Shown here: positions 2,342 through 39,617 of the stretch, piece after piece | Layout of the letters: each line of letters opens with the position of its first letter | How positions within the stretch are numbered: the stretch's first letter is position 1 | Program-made: the position numbers and the translations under genes | Source: a virus | Direction: 5' to 3' (one strand) | DNA length: 40,150 nt | UHGV virus genome: UHGV-0075716 | Notes under the pieces: generated by a model | Told to the model about the DNA's origin: nothing | The model's input: the letters and a program-made list of their open reading frames with translations, nothing else | Database searches by the model: none

Positions 2342-5287
2342 TTAGTGCTTCCCTTCTATTAAGTCTAACCTAGCTTTTATTCTTTCTATTTCTCTGCGCT
2401 GCCATGCCGCCTCGATATAGAATAAGAGATCAGGTCTGACCCCCCATCTAGATCCTGCTGGCGTTATTTCAACGCGCTCAATGATGTCTTCTATTACCAT
2501 CACTGGATTATCATCCTCATCAACAATGATGCTCCCGTCATTATCAGTCAGCGGCATTTCCCTTTGGCCAGTAATGACGTCATCATATACTGCGGGATAA
2601 TCGTCATAGCAAAGAAAGGCATAGCGGCATGTTGTGCTTTCTTCTTCCATGAGTCCGTGAGAAATAAGAACATCACGAAGTTGCTGCGCGATTACACCAT
2701 GATGTATCCTCGCCCCTTCTTCCCCCTTTATAGCGACAGCGTTCAGCCATTTATAAGCGATATACCTGACGTCACCCCAGGCATCCAGCAATGCTTCGTC
2801 AGGAGAGACCGGCTCTGTCTTTAATGTTCCGTCACTGGTAACCACAGGATTGGAGCCAAGATAAACTGTCGAGAACCTGTTTCCCGGACCACCAAGAGCA
2901 TTTACATTATCAAGATAAGGTTTAACATCTCCGTTCTCAAAAAGATGTTCGAGTGCGTTATATACCGCGCGACGTGGAGTACTGCTTCCGGAACCATGCA
3001 ACGTTATCATTGCACCATCTGCTGAAGACGTTGTTTCACCGCCGCTAACGATTAATCTCTGAGCGGTAACATCATCAGACGGTACTTTCTTCGCAATAAT
3101 GGCGTAATTACCCTCAAGTTTGACTTCCGCGCGAACTTGTCCTGATGTACCTGCATGGACAGTCAGTGACTGGACGGCAACATCATCTGTGAAATCAACG
3201 GGTACAGGAACCGTCCTCACGCCTGACGTCGACATAAAAGTAGGAAGCGTTCTGTTAGGAGTGGCTCCGTAGACAAAATCCCTTGAAACAAATTCTTCCT
3301 GTTTAATTTTCACCCTGAAACAATACAAATCAGCCGGGTGACCATCGTGAACATAAGGATATTTTCTGTTGTTATCCCCTATGCTCCATGGGTTTAGAAA
3401 ATCTTCCCCACCGAAAATGTAGTACAGCCAGTTGTCTTTGATACAAACTGAACCAACACCAACCGCAGAGTTAACTATTCCGCCCTGATAAATCTGATCA
3501 GTAACATTAACCCACTCTACATTATCCAGACTCCACTCATTGACGTTAACTCTGGTCATAAATGTTCTTGGATAATTTCCTGCATAACGGTTATCAGGTT
3601 CTCCTCCTTCCCACTCACCAAATGCGCGCTCACTGCCAAAAATAACCAGCTCATCGCCAACTTTGGCAAAAGGAAGGTTTGAGTGATGAACATTATTTGG
3701 GAAGCGAAGAGAATTCCATGATGTACCTAAATCAGAGCTTCTGTGCAATGAACTACCGGGTTGAGTACTTAATGTCCCCCTGGTCGTCAGATACAGAATG
3801 CCATCATAATATTTTACACATGGCTCAGATGCATTCGCCTCATATTCTGCAGGTATGCGTCTGCGAACAAAGCTACCAGGAGAACCGAAAGCATCAGAGA
3901 AATAGAGTATCCCAAGCTCGCGTGGACCAATATCACCATTATGGTAGCCAACAGCAAAACTGTTATCGCTAATCGTCGCAAAACTGTGAATCTCAGTAAC
4001 AGGAGTGCTTCCGTCAACAAAAGAAGGAATAGTTCCAAGACTGGTTTTTCTCCATGGTGACGAGTGAAATGATGTGCCAAAACTCCAGTATCTACCCTCG
4101 TTATTCTGATCCACATCCTGGGTATTTTGCGTCGTAACTGTAAAGGTATTTTTATCAATAACAGTAGTCACCGTCATATTCCCGGTAACATCTGTAACAC
4201 CAGAGTTTGAGAAGTTGACAAAATCACCAGCAAATAATCCGTGATCAGTAATGCGAATATAAGCGACTTGCTGATTTGCTGCTTTCGTTATACCACCATA
4301 AACGCGAAGGCTGCGACTCATTGGGCGATCCCACAACTCTGCAACCTGCAGTTTATTTCCTCTCACGGTCCGCGTCTCAATTACAGCAAAAAGGCGATTT
4401 CTGACAACCCCCATACTCATGCAGTGATAGTTAACTGTGGGATAGTTTTCATGTAAATCTGTAAGCCATTCCGGCGTTGTCCAGGTCTTCCCGTCATCTC
4501 CTGAGCGAACCCATGCAACATGGAGGTTATTTACACCATGGCGGTCTCCAGCCATAAAAGGCGCATAGATGACATTGTCATATACAAACGTTTTATCCTG
4601 CGTCCAGGCGTTGTACCACGGTGTATCTGTAATTTTAAATAACTCTCCCTGGATAAAATCTTCAGAAGCATAAAAAAGAGGCTGACCCGGTATTCTCTCA
4701 AATAAAAAACGAGCATTTTTAAATCGACTGACATCTGGAAGAGTTGATACTTTAAAAGTAAGCCCTCGCCCATCTATCTTTTCACCACCTGTTGCAACAG
4801 AAAGTAATTCTGATAGAGCTGATGTATCATCATGAACACCATCACCAATAGCCCCCCAACCTCTTACATCATAACTGTCTCTCCATCTTGCTATCTGAAG
4901 TTTTGGGTATTTATTCGCTCCATCTGGGTCTTCTAATTGCTGCCGTAGTTGATCTGGGTCATACTTCAGCACATTAGGAAAATAGAACTGCTGCGCACCA
5001 TACGCATCATAAACAGCCATAGAATGGCCTTGCACGGTAACGAATTTGGCAATCTGTCCGTTATATACAGGATATCCAGCAGCGTTAATGATGATTGGTT
5101 GAGAAACAGGAACGTGAGAACCGTCTTCGTTCTCCACATAAGCCTGAATCTGGTTTTCAGGATTTACAGGGTCAGTATCAATTTTACCGATATAAATTTT
5201 GCCATTAGCTACGGCTTTAAAAGAACGCGCCATAGTGAAGAGTTGCGAAGGCATCGATACAATCACATTGGCTGTAATGTCTGTCAT
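2342..5287 (-). CDS. Tailspike: P22 gp9-type head-binding N-terminus fused to endosialidase (sialidase beta-propeller) with C-terminal intramolecular chaperone domain
   Basis: N-terminus [11 protein letters not shown]...[14 protein letters not shown]...VLKYDPDQ resembles P22 tailspike head-binding domain; Asp-boxes SGDDGKTW and SSDLGTSW; C-terminal ...VVTSDGTLK...[12 protein letters not shown]... resembles autocleaving chaperone domains. Confidence 0.85.
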
Positions 5288-6833: not shown

Positions 6834-7082
6834 ATGGCAAAGGGTGTGTCAATTTCTCCAACTACGGTAAGAATCCCTGAATCTTTACGCGAGGCTCTTT
6901 CTGTCAGAGCATCAAAAAATGGTCGCTCTGTTAACTCCGAGATCGTCATGATTTTGCAAGCCGCGATTGATGAAGATAGGTCGCCAAAGTCAGTTGAGTC
7001 ATTTGCTCAGCAAGAAGCTGACAAATTCAAAGAGGCGCTGCTTGAGACGCTAAAGACCATGTATGGTAAGGATGAAAAATAA
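6834..7082 (+). CDS. mnt: Mnt-type ribbon-helix-helix repressor
   Basis: 82 aa; KNGRSVNSEIVMILQAAI and C-terminal KFKEALLETLKTMYGK resemble P22 Mnt (ANGRSMNSEL..., ...VFDTLKDLYKK). Confidence 0.85.
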   Translation: MAKGVSISPTTVRIPESLREALSVRASKNGRSVNSEIVMILQAAIDEDRSPKSVESFAQQEADKFKEALLETLKTMYGKDEK

Positions 7083-7618
7083 TGCTGCACACAATTCATT
7101 TCTTATGCCCCGTTAACACTGCCACTGTTGGGCAACTTCAGAACCACTGTCTCACCGCATTATCTCAGGGCGCAACTGAATTAAATATCCATATATCAAG
7201 TCAGGGAGGGGAAACTGCCGCTGGCTTTACTGCGTATAACTTTCTTAAGTCACTCCCTGTTACCGTTAGAACTCACAACATAAGCAATGTTGAATCCATA
7301 GCTAATATCGTTTTCCTGGCTGGCTCAGAACGTTTCGCAAACCCATTATCAAGATTCCTGTTACATCCTCTATTATGGGGCTTTGCCACCCCAGCCGCCG
7401 ACCATGCCAGATTGAGAGAGTACGGGAAATGCCTCGATAACGATCTTGATCGCTTCGTTGAGACGTTCAATATCGACATCGGAACCCATATTAGGTGGGA
7501 ATCCCTGATAGCAGACTCGACCATTTTGGATGCTAACAAGGCTCTTGAGCATGGCATAATTAATTCCATAAAAACTGCAAGGCTGGTATCCAATCAGGCA
7601 AACTGGTGGGTTGTTTGA
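7082..7618 (+). CDS. ClpP-family (S14-like) serine peptidase homologue, translationally coupled to mnt
   Basis: Gap-free match to ClpP core: ISSQGGETAAGFTAYNFL...VTVRTHNISNVESIANIVFLAG versus INSPGGVITAGMSIYDTM...[20 protein letters not shown], Ser aligned; His in LLHPL; Asp later. Start overlaps mnt stop (TAATG). Confidence 0.7.
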   Translation: MLHTIHFLCPVNTATVGQLQNHCLTALSQGATELNIHISSQGGETAAGFTAYNFLKSLPVTVRTHNISNVESIANIVFLAGSERFANPLSRFLLHPLLWGFATPAADHARLREYGKCLDNDLDRFVETFNIDIGTHIRWESLIADSTILDANKALEHGIINSIKTARLVSNQANWWVV

Positions 7619-25324: not shown

Positions 25325-25948
25325 CTAACGTGTGACCGCATTCAAAATGTTGTCTGCGATTGACTCTTCTTTGTGGCATTGCACCACCAGAGCGTCATAC
25401 AGCGGCTTAACAGTGCGTGACCATGTGGGTTGGGTAAGGTTGGGGATTAGCATCGTTACAGCGCGATATGCGGCGCTTGCTGGCATCCTTGAATAGCCGA
25501 CGCCTTTGCATCTTCCACACTCTTTCTCAACAACTCTCCCCCACTGCTCTGTTTTGGCAATATCAACCGCACGGCCTGTACCGTGGCAATCTCTGCATCT
25601 TGCGCCCGGCGTCGCGGCACTACGGCAATAATCCGCATAAGCGAATGTTGCGAGCACTTGCAGTACCTTTGCCTTAGTATTTCCTTCGAGCTTTGCCACA
25701 CCACGATATTTCCCCGATACCTTGTGTGCAAATTGCATCAGATAGTTGATAGCCTTTTGTTTGTCATTCTGGCTGAGTTCGTGCTTGCCGCAGAATGCAG
25801 CCATACCGAATCCGGCTTGTGATTGCGCCATCCCCATAGCAGCCATCACATCAGTACCGGAAAGAGAGTCAGAAGCCGTAGCCCGTGGTGAGTCACTCAT
25901 CATTGGGCTTTTTGGCGAATGAAATTTAGCTACGCTTTCGAGTCTCAT
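25325..25948 (-). CDS. Q: Late antiterminator Q (lambda-type)
   Basis: 207 aa; MRLESVAKFHSPKSPMMSDSP... with CRDCHGTG...CGRCKG zinc motif matches lambda Q as recalled. Confidence 0.9.
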   Translation of the reverse strand: MRLESVAKFHSPKSPMMSDSPRATASDSLSGTDVMAAMGMAQSQAGFGMAAFCGKHELSQNDKQKAINYLMQFAHKVSGKYRGVAKLEGNTKAKVLQVLATFAYADYCRSAATPGARCRDCHGTGRAVDIAKTEQWGRVVEKECGRCKGVGYSRMPASAAYRAVTMLIPNLTQPTWSRTVKPLYDALVVQCHKEESIADNILNAVTR

Positions 25949-26133
25949 GGCCTTCCCCTTTTGCCCTGTTTGACCATCAGGACGCCGTTAACTATTACGT
26001 GACGCTCGCCTTTGCTGTCTCGGTTGTACTTGAGCACTGTTCCTCTTGCGCAGGAAAGCATCCTTGCCACTTCGGTCTGATTGCCTCGTGTCTGGATAAG
26101 AAGCTCTGGTATCGTTTGAATTGTGGCGTTCAT
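25945..26133 (-). CDS. ninH: NinH-like protein
   Basis: 62 aa; IPELLIQTRGNQTEVARMLSCARGTVLKY resembles lambda NinH; just upstream of Q. Confidence 0.7.
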   Translation of the reverse strand: MNATIQTIPELLIQTRGNQTEVARMLSCARGTVLKYNRDSKGERHVIVNGVLMVKQGKRGRP

Positions 26134-26492
26134 GCGTTCTCCAGTTCGGTGATTTTTATTCCAAGCCTTCCGCCTGGTACTTTCACGCCACGAATTACGC
26201 GAATGTCATCGAATTGCTCGTCGTCTTCCGCAAATCCGGCGTGGATAAGGGAGTCGAGTAAACCTTTCAGGATGTTGTCGAGGTCGCGACGGCGGGAGTC
26301 CGGAACGTCTGCGATGACTTTGATACGGAGTCGTGATTTGGTGAAAATGTCTAACTTGAGTTGGCGGATGATTTGCTGAACGTCTTTTCGGTATTTCTGG
26401 CCTTTGTCGCTTATGTAATATTGGCTTCCCCGTCTTCGCCAGTAGGTATTCACCGACGGCGGGTATGGGAGCACAAACTGATATTCGTTCAT
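26130..26492 (-). CDS. rusA: Holliday-junction resolvase RusA
   Basis: 120 aa; PPSVNTYW...DVPDSRRRDLDNILKGLLDSL matches RusA signature. Confidence 0.85.
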   Translation of the reverse strand: MNEYQFVLPYPPSVNTYWRRRGSQYYISDKGQKYRKDVQQIIRQLKLDIFTKSRLRIKVIADVPDSRRRDLDNILKGLLDSLIHAGFAEDDEQFDDIRVIRGVKVPGGRLGIKITELENA

Positions 26493-26779
26493 GACTTAAT
26501 CTTCCCCTCCTTCAGCAGTATCGCCTGCGTCCTGATCACGCCTTCGAGGTGGTAAAGTCTGGCGTCTTTGTTGTCGAGATTATGGGTGCGTCGGTCGATT
26601 TCATCGTGACACGCGCTACAAGCCCATGCGCCGATCAGGTCGTCAGGCTTCATTCCCGTTCCGCAAATTCCAGCCATCCGGTAATGTGCCAGAACTGTAG
26701 TTTCAGGATTGCCATTGCATACGCCGTAAATACGTACCTGGCATTCTCTGCCGCGCGCTTCTTTGCGTAGGTTAGCCAT
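26489..26779 (-). CDS. DUF1364/YbcO-like zinc-binding protein
   Basis: 96 aa; MANLRKEARGRECQVRIYGVCNGNPETTVLAHYR...CSACHDEIDRR pattern. Confidence 0.6.
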   Translation of the reverse strand: MANLRKEARGRECQVRIYGVCNGNPETTVLAHYRMAGICGTGMKPDDLIGAWACSACHDEIDRRTHNLDNKDARLYHLEGVIRTQAILLKEGKIKS

Positions 26780-26984
26780 TTACCTTCCCTCGCAATTGAA
26801 GAATTGACTGAAGGTCTTTTTTAATAAATATGCGAGTGCGAATTGAGCAGTAGTTTTCCTTCATTCTGGCGTAGTAATAGTCTTTTCTTTGCTTAAGCTT
26901 GTTGGCATCCGCTGTCATCCAGTCTTTTACAGCAAACTTAATTAACCAGCGGTGGCAGAGATACCATTTCAGGTAATCACTCAT
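26772..26984 (-). CDS. Hypothetical small protein (AT-rich insert in nin region)
   Basis: 70 aa ORF, start overlaps ninF stop; no recognisable family. Confidence 0.4.
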   Translation of the reverse strand: MSDYLKWYLCHRWLIKFAVKDWMTADANKLKQRKDYYYARMKENYCSIRTRIFIKKDLQSILQLRGKVNG

Positions 26985-27153
26985 CGTCTTCTTCCTCGTA
27001 CATTGAGCTATTCGGATCGCTCATCAGTTCTGCGCAGCAGTGCTCACACACGTGAACTTCCAGCACATGCAGCTTCTGACCGCAGTTAGCGCACGTTAAA
27101 GCTCGCTCGACGCTTTCTTTCTGGTATTGAATGGATTGGGATGGGCTAAGCAT
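26977..27153 (-). CDS. ninF: NinF-like protein (58 aa, below ORF-track cutoff)
   Basis: Manual translation [58 protein letters not shown], close to lambda NinF as recalled. Confidence 0.7.
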   Translation of the reverse strand: MLSPSQSIQYQKESVERALTCANCGQKLHVLEVHVCEHCCAELMSDPNSSMYEEEDDE

Positions 27154-27547
27154 TATTGGCGTCCTGCATCATGAGAAAGACAATCATGGCAGCGCGGAGT
27201 GGGTTTTCATCTTGAGTCATATGATATGGGGTACTATCACCGCCAACTTTTCTATGCGCTGCCTTCCATAATCCATTTTCTGGTGCTGGAATAATTCCAA
27301 TTCTGTTCTCTACGATAATCGGCTCTGCGTCTGATGGGCTTTTACAGTAATCAACCGTTTTTATTGCATAACCAGTTTCGTCATCCCACTCAACACCAAC
27401 GATTGATGTTCCCAACTTTGCGATTTCGCAATCTTCGGGAGCAAATCCACAGCAAATTGCCACTCGCTTGTTAATTTCAAAATCACTTAACTGTGAATAA
27501 TCCATTGTCATTTCCTCGCACGATGTCTTAGCCACCGGATATCCCAC
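27146..27547 (-). CDS. NinX-position protein (DUF2591-like)
   Basis: 133 aa; sits between ninE and ninF where P22 carries ninX. Confidence 0.5.
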
Positions 27548-27684
27548 AGGTGAGCCGTGTAATTGAAGGTTTTTACGTCAGATTCTTTTGGGATTGGCTT
27601 GCGTTTATTTCTGGAGCGTTTCGTTGGAAGGTATTTGCAGTTTTCGCAGATGATGTCGGTGATACTTCGTCGCTGTCGCATCAT
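27508..27684 (-). CDS. ninE: NinE-like protein (start at internal ATG ~27684)
   Basis: [58 protein letters not shown] resembles lambda NinE. Confidence 0.7.
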
Positions 27685-28208
27685 GCCGCTCTCCTGACGC
27701 CCCGCCCGATCGTCATCAATGTCGCTTTGGATACGGTAGTAAACATCCGTCGAGGACTGATGAACGGTCGCCAAATCAGCAGCATGGAACCTTTGCTGTT
27801 TCCCTTCTTCTCCAACCCTGTCGATGGTTCGATAAAATTAATCCGTCCATCAGTAATGATGCGAACTTCGTCAACACTCTCCAGAGCCTTGCTGAACCAT
27901 CCGACAGACATATCCTCTGGCACAAGCATCACTATCGTCTGTCGCTGTTGTATGCACTGCTCAGCGGCTTTTTCCACCCACGGCCTGATATTGCTGTACG
28001 GTGGGTTATTCCAGATTGCACCGTGGCTTTCCCACTCAGAATTGAGCGCGTCGTCGGCCTCAGTTAGCCAGTGAGCACACAGAGCATTTTTGTCGCTCGC
28101 TGCCGAATCCAGCCAGAATCCAAACTCAATATCCAGTGCATCAAAAAGCCAAAGCGGCGTTTGCCAGCAGTCCTTGTCGTGTGCTGGCGTATTTGATTTG
28201 ATAGTCAT
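27681..28208 (-). CDS. Phage Dam-type DNA N6-adenine methyltransferase
   Basis: [15 protein letters not shown]... and NPPY motif (IWNNPPYS); likely start ATG 28208 overlapping ninB stop (ATGA). Confidence 0.8.
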
Positions 28209-38816: not shown

Positions 38817-39617
38817 ATGACCATCCACTTTCACGGCAGCCCAATATGGGGGGATGAGCATGCCCCTACAGATATGCTGATTAAAGCCCTTTACCGTGAT
38901 GGTGGGGCTTTTGTTTCATTTGCCAGACCAGAGCAGATGAAAAAGATTGCCATGTTCCCTTGTGATATACGCCTTGATAACGGCGCTTTTAGCGACTGGA
39001 TGAAAGCATTAAAGAAAGGCACTCCGGTAGACTGGAGTAAGAGACGAGCAAAATTCTACGACTTTGTTGGGAAGTGGTTCAGCAGAATTGAATGGTTTCT
39101 TATACCTGACGTTATCGAAGGGACAGAGGCAGAAAACGACGAGCAGATTGAGTGTGTTCCTGATTGGCTAAAATCAAAAGCGGTTCCTGTCTGGCATACC
39201 GACGAATCAATTGAACGTCTTTTACGCCTTTCTGGCAAATTTGAATGGGTGGCGATTGGATGCTGCGGCCCACACAGGCACATACGCTCTAAATGGTGGG
39301 AACAGAGAATGGATGAAGTTTTCACTGAACTTTATATCAATCGTAATTTGAAAGTGAAAATTCATGGTCTTCGAATGCTCGACGTGAGAGTTCTTGGTAT
39401 GTATCCGTTCGCCAGTGCGGATTCTACTAATGTTGCTGTTAACGTACCGAAGACAGAGAAGCGATTTCCTGAGATTACCGACAAACTGGCACGTACAGCT
39501 GTACTTCGCGCTGCTATTGAAAAGGTGCACCCGCCATCGATATCAGCATGGGTAGACAGAAAGATGAGAGAGCCGGCGCAAGCCGGTTTTTTATTTGAAT
39601 TCACCGACGCCGCTTAA
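38817..39617 (+). CDS. Hypothetical 266-aa protein; possible TGT/DpdA-like (tRNA-guanine transglycosylase fold) enzyme - low confidence on function
   Basis: ORF is solid; function guess rests on weak motif similarity (IHFHGSP, IRLDNGAFSD vs TGT LTDSGGFQ, EWVAIGCCGP, KIHGLRMLD, PFASADS) and alternating beta/alpha pattern. Confidence 0.55.
   Translation: MTIHFHGSPIWGDEHAPTDMLIKALYRDGGAFVSFARPEQMKKIAMFPCDIRLDNGAFSDWMKALKKGTPVDWSKRRAKFYDFVGKWFSRIEWFLIPDVIEGTEAENDEQIECVPDWLKSKAVPVWHTDESIERLLRLSGKFEWVAIGCCGPHRHIRSKWWEQRMDEVFTELYINRNLKVKIHGLRMLDVRVLGMYPFASADSTNVAVNVPKTEKRFPEITDKLARTAVLRAAIEKVHPPSISAWVDRKMREPAQAGFLFEFTDAA

Follow-up and report, generated by a model that had tools for sequence, protein, structure and literature searches.

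The closest described relatives of the gene considered here are Dam-like DNA adenine methylases of Shiga toxin (Stx) phages. M.EcoVT2Dam, the product of orf32 of phage VT2-Sakai (BAA84315), is an orphan methylase said to target 5'-GATC-3', in the wording with which PMC6602927 cites Radlinska & Bujnicki (2001). It is listed with other phage Dam-like enzymes in PMC7556043, where the role of these enzymes is called 'still not well understood'. Phage Phi24B has a 'dam' coding sequence (CDS) of 528 bp, whose product is 100% identical to the VT2-Sakai protein; it is expressed in lysogen cultures, and its expression changes significantly upon induction (PMC3342100). We analyzed a related gene at positions 27681-28208, on the minus strand, of the virus genome UHGV-0075716 (the window: a stretch of 40,150 nucleotides). 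We consider it very likely that this gene encodes a small single-domain orphan GATC N6-adenine methylase, orthologous to M.EcoVT2Dam and made as a delayed-early product of the nin operon, which would top up the methylation of replicating phage DNA. The locus is already known, since annotation of the gene, with its family, position and codon overlaps, exists for hundreds of phage records and for about 1,500 complete E. coli genomes. As a near-identical orthologue has been cloned and characterized, the locus carries little weight as a discovery, and the wider question that it raises beyond the window is why lambdoid phages of dam+ hosts so often have a GATC methylase of their own.

The gene and its junctions are as follows.

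27681-28208, minus strand: CDS of the phage N-6-adenine DNA methyltransferase, 175 amino acids plus TGA (ORF call and translation)
28205-28208, minus strand: overlap of the ninB stop with the methylase start, ATGA (junction sequence)
27681-27684, minus strand: overlap of the methylase stop with the ninE start, ATGA (junction sequence)
28219-28224, minus strand: GGGGAG resembling a Shine-Dalgarno (SD) sequence, 10 nt upstream of the methylase ATG and within the 3' end of ninB (junction sequence)

An earlier note on this DNA, made from the letters and a list of open reading frames (ORFs), had placed a Dam-type adenine methyltransferase at these coordinates, with overlapping start and stop codons on both sides. 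The interval does hold a real ORF, on the minus strand (a detail that the note had left out), with its ATG at 28208-28206 and its TGA at 27683-27681, and both ATGA overlaps can be read directly. The assignment to a family of Dam-like N6-adenine methyltransferases also holds. The profile search, whose failure had been named as a refutation, gave essentially full-length matches, above cutoff, to Pfam PF05869, 'DNA N-6-adenine-methyltransferase (Dam)' (217 bits against a cutoff of 28.1, E = 1.7e-64, profile positions 1-167 of 169), and to the NCBIfam equivalog TIGR01712, phage_N6A_met (260.9 bits against a cutoff of 97.05, E = 3.3e-78, positions 1-165 of 165). Given these E-values, the family match is far past chance. 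The protein was further assigned to PHROG 111 (phrog_111), 'DNA methyltransferase'. In the Pfam scan (E <= 0.01), PF05869 was the only hit, with no match to the profile of the MT-A70 family (to which M.EfaBMDam, for example, belongs) or to the alpha-class profile of E. coli Dam and T4 Dam.

The motifs expected of such an enzyme are present. Catalytic motif IV, (N/D)PPY, appears as NPPY at residues 68-71, encoded at 28007-27996 (plus strand gtacggtgggtt; reverse complement AAC CCA CCG TAC); it is invariant across 33 aligned homologues and aligns with the NPPY of T1 Dam and of HP1 orf13. It is preceded by a motif I-like segment, F-x-L-D-x-A-A, within residues 29-38, in which F31, L33, D34 and A36 are invariant in the aligned homologues and part of which is kept as LD(S/T/A)AA in the T1 and HP1 enzymes; we take this segment to be the putative binding site for S-adenosylmethionine (AdoMet). 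The stretch that the note had cited beside NPPY is residues 11-20, encoded by 28178-28149 on the minus strand. In the homologue alignment, all 46 invariant columns of the family are intact.

When we searched all PDB sequences with phmmer, among them E. coli Dam, T4 Dam and DpnM, no match was better than E = 0.6, and we therefore turned to an AlphaFold2 model for the fold. The model has the class-I AdoMet-dependent (Rossmann-like) fold of an N6-adenine methyltransferase and, at 175 residues, has no separate target-recognition domain. Its best structural match is PCIF1, an RNA cap N6-methyladenine (m6A) methyltransferase; METTL3, METTL14 and METTL4 are weak Foldseek matches (E > 0.04). The PCIF1 match and the missing recognition domain count in favor of a rival reading, in which the enzyme is an active methyltransferase whose relevant substrate is not, or not only, GATC in DNA, but which instead has relaxed adenine specificity, acts on RNA or works with a partner protein. 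A precedent of this kind exists in M.EcoPA8orf6770P, a prophage-borne protein of Shiga toxin-producing E. coli that is annotated as a GATC adenine methylase; by itself it showed no significant activity on DNA, and in complex with PNB-2 it methylated 16S rRNA (PMC10810198). However, M.EcoPA8orf6770P is an MT-A70 protein with a DPPW motif, encoded near the left end of its prophage, whereas the protein in our window has NPPY, matches PF05869 and is encoded at another locus. We rejected the idea that the two are the same gene, and we regard a substrate other than GATC as quite improbable for the window's enzyme. We also considered the non-specific adenine methylases of the Hia5 type as relatives and rejected them; they form a separate DPPY subfamily, and the paper describing Hia5 names neither VT2, HP1 nor T1.

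The GATC specificity that we favor would follow from the likeness to M.EcoVT2Dam. The two proteins are identical at 170 of 175 residues (97%), and the five differences from VT2-Sakai orf32 (E60V, I92V, T163A, T166A and R169Q) all fall outside the invariant columns. VT2-Sakai orf32 likewise encodes 175 residues, and its place, too, is between ninB and ninE, overlapping each by the same 4 nt, although its neighboring ninB is a different allele, so that DNA homology is restricted to 28215-27511 (the methylase gene and ninE). The carriers differ too: the phage studied here is P22-like and has an endosialidase tailspike, whereas M.EcoVT2Dam is carried by an Stx phage. The product of L0094 of phage 933W, which that record annotates as 'similar to methylases of bacteriophage HP1 and T1', is 96.6% identical to the window's protein. 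Judged by these sequences, the gene is an orthologue of M.EcoVT2Dam, and its inferred product specificity is m6A at GATC.

The enzymes of HP1 and T1 are more remote. HP1 orf13 (HP1 Dam; 37% identity, E = 4e-33) and T1 Dam (34% identity, E = 1e-26) belong to the same Pfam and TIGR families and share the WxTP, LDxAA and NPPYS motifs, but they are distant, paralogue-level relatives from unrelated phage types and other genomic contexts, and T1 Dam is longer (237 amino acids), being extended at the N-terminus and containing an internal insertion. The alpha-class GATC methylases (E. coli Dam, T4 Dam and DpnM) resemble the protein at the level of the fold only. They differ from it in motif order, since motif I precedes motif IV in the window's protein, and they are about 100 residues longer and have the separate DNA-recognition domain that it lacks. 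It is 'Dam-type' by function and not by descent: the expected GATC site is shared with host Dam, but the sequence families are different.

We also asked whether the gene call itself could be read differently. We assign the start to the ATG at 28208 because all 32 of 32 aligned homologues begin at this position, with M-T-I/L-K-S-N-T. A longer ORF from a GTG at 28268 (195 amino acids) was rejected: its extra 20 residues lie inside ninB, outside the Pfam profile alignment, and are missing from the homologues. An antisense ORF on the plus strand (27550-28074, 174 amino acids) has no family support, its one match being a sub-threshold chance hit, and was also set aside. Between the methylase ATG and the SD-like GGGGAG there is a GATC site (28216-28219).

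The same gene is common among phages and prophages. DNA of the ninB-methylase-ninE(-ninX) block matches 433 phage records, and in 61 of these the match spans 80% or more of the 1.3-kb query; the matching records include phages of Escherichia (among them HK544), Salmonella and Shigella (Sf101) as well as Stx-converting phages. By tblastn, a protein 95-99% identical is encoded in 244 phage records, and distant family members in about 1,700. The gene is present in 1562 of 5426 complete E. coli genomes (29%), with up to five copies per genome, and a methylase sequence 100% identical to ours occurs in five of them. In the listed genomes the Prokaryotic Genome Annotation Pipeline (PGAP) names the product 'phage N-6-adenine-methyltransferase', and places it between 'recombination protein NinB' and 'NinE family protein'. 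Our literature search pairing 'Dam methyltransferase' with ninB found nothing. The conservation of the gene argues against the ORF being a decayed, inactive remnant that is carried passively in the nin region. In favor of such a remnant, nin-region genes are non-essential in lambda (PMC8022706), and truncated or fused variants do occur in databases (for example P0020, P0041 and P0091). But this ORF is full length, has 46 of 46 invariant columns intact and scores 261 bits on the equivalog model; only a single one of the 1570 E. coli records that match falls below 95% nucleotide conservation; and the orthologue in Phi24B is expressed. We therefore give the remnant explanation very little probability.

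Some database proteins have the methylase fused in frame to NinE, NinB or RusA domains (P0002, P0024, P0017 and P0011). Because the junctions are 4-nt overlaps, these fusions are probably frameshift or annotation artefacts that arise at the ATGA sites. In Klebsiella phage PIN1, a distant methylase relative (28% identity) is found under a gene annotated as PAPS (3'-phosphoadenosine 5'-phosphosulfate) reductase, a protein of the same family as lambda NinC; either a fusion or a functional link between two alternative cassettes of one slot could explain this.

The neighborhood of the gene is that of a lambdoid nin operon.

28205-28645, minus strand: ninB, 146 amino acids from the ATG at 28645, PF05772 (182.6 bits), with the SD sequence GGGGGAGAGGGAAG upstream
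27508-27684, minus strand: ninE, 58 amino acids, PF05322 (149.4 bits, full length)
27146-27511, minus strand: ninX (DUF2591), PF10765 (77.5 bits)
28670-28693, minus strand: hairpin resembling an intrinsic terminator (AGGCCTGC...GCAGGCCT then TTTTATTT), just upstream of ninB (consensus scan)

These profile scores bear out the earlier identification of ninB and ninE as the flanking genes. The TGA of ninB (28207-28205) overlaps the methylase ATG. On the other side, the ATG of ninE (27684-27682) follows by 6 nt an SD sequence, AGGAG (27695-27691), that lies within the 3' end of the methylase gene. The ATG of ninX, at 27511, in turn overlaps the ninE TGA (ATGA). Read along the minus strand, the genes are, in order: O-like initiator, DnaB-like helicase, ninB, methylase, ninE, ninX, ninF, a 70-aa ORF, DUF1364, rusA, ninH and Q. 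The methylase gene is thus placed as a member of the nin operon should be: after the replication genes and before Q, on the strand transcribed from pR, with tightly packed ATGA-type junctions.

The overlaps had been presented as a feature of the methylase gene. They are real, but they are not special to it, because every junction from ninB to Q (25325-28645, minus strand) overlaps: of the nine junctions, six share 4 nt (ATGA) and three share 8 nt (ninX/ninF, ninF/orf70 and orf70/DUF1364). Start/stop overlap is therefore a feature of the whole operon, and PMC8022706, which quotes Kroger & Hobom 1982 and Cheng et al. 1995, describes tight overlapping junctions for the nin regions of all lambdoid phages. 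Translational coupling to ninB and ninE, which had been stated as fact, is suggested by the 4-nt overlaps and should be read as a deduction from them.

We call the methylase an orphan in the sense that no partner restriction enzyme is encoded adjacent to it: both overlapping neighbors are NinB and NinE, and the rest of the block down to Q consists of nin genes, RusA and Q. Phage methyltransferases can be parts of restriction-modification systems, as in the case of M.EcoGIII, which is encoded on an Stx phage together with its cognate endonuclease. Against the present gene being the modification half of such a system, the ninB-Q block is already fully accounted for, and M.EcoVT2Dam is itself described as an orphan methyltransferase. 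We attach next to no probability to this explanation.

The gene had also been described as inserted between ninB and ninE. Its position is as described, but we found that it swaps for other genes and is not an addition. In a BLASTN comparison with lambda, homology runs through ninB (95.6% nucleotide identity) to end exactly at its stop codon at 28205, and resumes at 27677, 7 nt inside ninE; in a comparison with P22 it ends at 28218 and resumes at 27678, just inside ninE. The slot between ninB and ninE is filled by ninC and ninD in lambda and by ninD in P22. Because homology breaks at the end of ninB and restarts in ninE, the methylase gene is one of several alternative cassettes; it takes the place of lambda ninC+ninD, or of P22 ninD, exactly at gene boundaries, which is classic lambdoid mosaicism. 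The genes that it replaces occupy the same position with the same ATGA-type junctions, but their proteins are unrelated to the methylase, and NinC is PAPS-reductase-like. We rejected an insertion of the moron type, with its own promoter and terminator, since neither flank leaves any intergenic space and promoter-like matches were no more frequent than in shuffled sequences.

The ORF, its family, fold, conserved motifs, context and orthology are the directly supported part of our account, and the role of the enzyme would be built on them as follows. The gene would be transcribed from pR, within the early-right nin operon of an E. coli phage that resembles P22 and CUS-3. Upstream of ninB, the hairpin at 28670-28693 is GC-rich and followed by a T-run; it stands where lambda has tR2 and where P22 has a terminator at ninA, annotated in the P22 record as 'similar to phage lambda'. 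Because the gene lies downstream of this tR2-like terminator, we expect, by analogy with lambda, that the methylase would be a delayed-early product, made after N-type antitermination. Ribosomes terminating at the end of ninB would pass on to translate the methylase, and those terminating there would pass on to ninE. The enzyme, a solitary AdoMet-dependent methylase, would flip out the adenine of GATC and methylate it at N6. Phage DNA that replicates fast and is left under-methylated by host Dam would in this way become fully methylated at GATC before packaging, which could protect it from methylation-sensitive, GATC-cleaving restriction in the next host and from nicking by MutH; Dam-dependent regulation might also be altered. 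Completing the GATC methylation of progeny DNA is the most economical role. Protection from restriction and altered Dam-dependent regulation, both of which had been proposed earlier, are plausible but speculative, as is the selective benefit of the gene.

Several points weigh against this account. The GATC specificity goes back to a 2001 paper that is known to us through its citations, and M.EcoPA8orf6770P, a GATC Dam homologue by annotation that prefers 16S rRNA when acting with a partner protein (PMC10810198), illustrates that annotation-based specificity can mislead, though it comes from another family. The terminator was called from a consensus match only, and such sites are no more numerous in the region than in shuffled sequences. 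In a dam+ host the activity would be redundant, which leaves its benefit unclear. Finally, GATC is depleted in the window as a whole: there are 86 sites, where base composition predicts 155 and a Markov model 199 (ratio about 0.43-0.55), and this depletion lowers the number of DNA sites that there are to protect. CTAG (0.42) and GGCC (0.45) are likewise depleted in the whole window.

The redundancy also affects how the prediction can be checked: since the expected GATC is already methylated by host Dam, the absence of a new motif in a dam+ host, which had been put forward as a refutation, would wrongly count against the methylase. The gene is widespread, occurring in 29% of complete E. coli genomes, and is kept in dam+ hosts, which might point to a function other than redundant GATC methylation, such as counter-defence against a system that senses GATC or hemimethylation, control of lysogen stability and spontaneous induction, or methylation of a second substrate, for which the unrelated MT-A70 prophage enzyme offers a precedent. 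We think such a function very unlikely.

The window as a whole appears to be a complete P22-like genome of 40.15 kb, opened at the integrase gene (14-1207). Its virion half is closest to phiv205-1 and CUS-3, and its early half is a mosaic of HK106, mEp506 and vB_EcoP-683R2. Two further genes are of note.

2342-5287, minus strand: tailspike, joining a P22 head-binding domain to complete endosialidase domains and an S74 chaperone
30148-31038, minus strand: O-like replication initiator gene

The tailspike has the same architecture as that of the K1-capsule phage CUS-3. Inside the O-like initiator gene there are six copies of an 11-bp iteron (TGGACAACCGT) at 30547-30664, in two clusters of three, and the same 11-bp repeat unit is reported as a probable origin in gene 18 of phage L (PMC8022706). 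Two ORFs had no Pfam match: the 70-aa ORF at 26772-26984 (minus strand), flanked by ninF and the DUF1364 gene, and an ORF of 266 amino acids in the early-left region at 38817-39617 (plus strand). An ORF of 178 amino acids at 7082-7618 (plus strand), located between an antirepressor-like gene and the DNA-injection genes, has a match to the Clp-protease family (47 bits) and is an unusual accessory gene.
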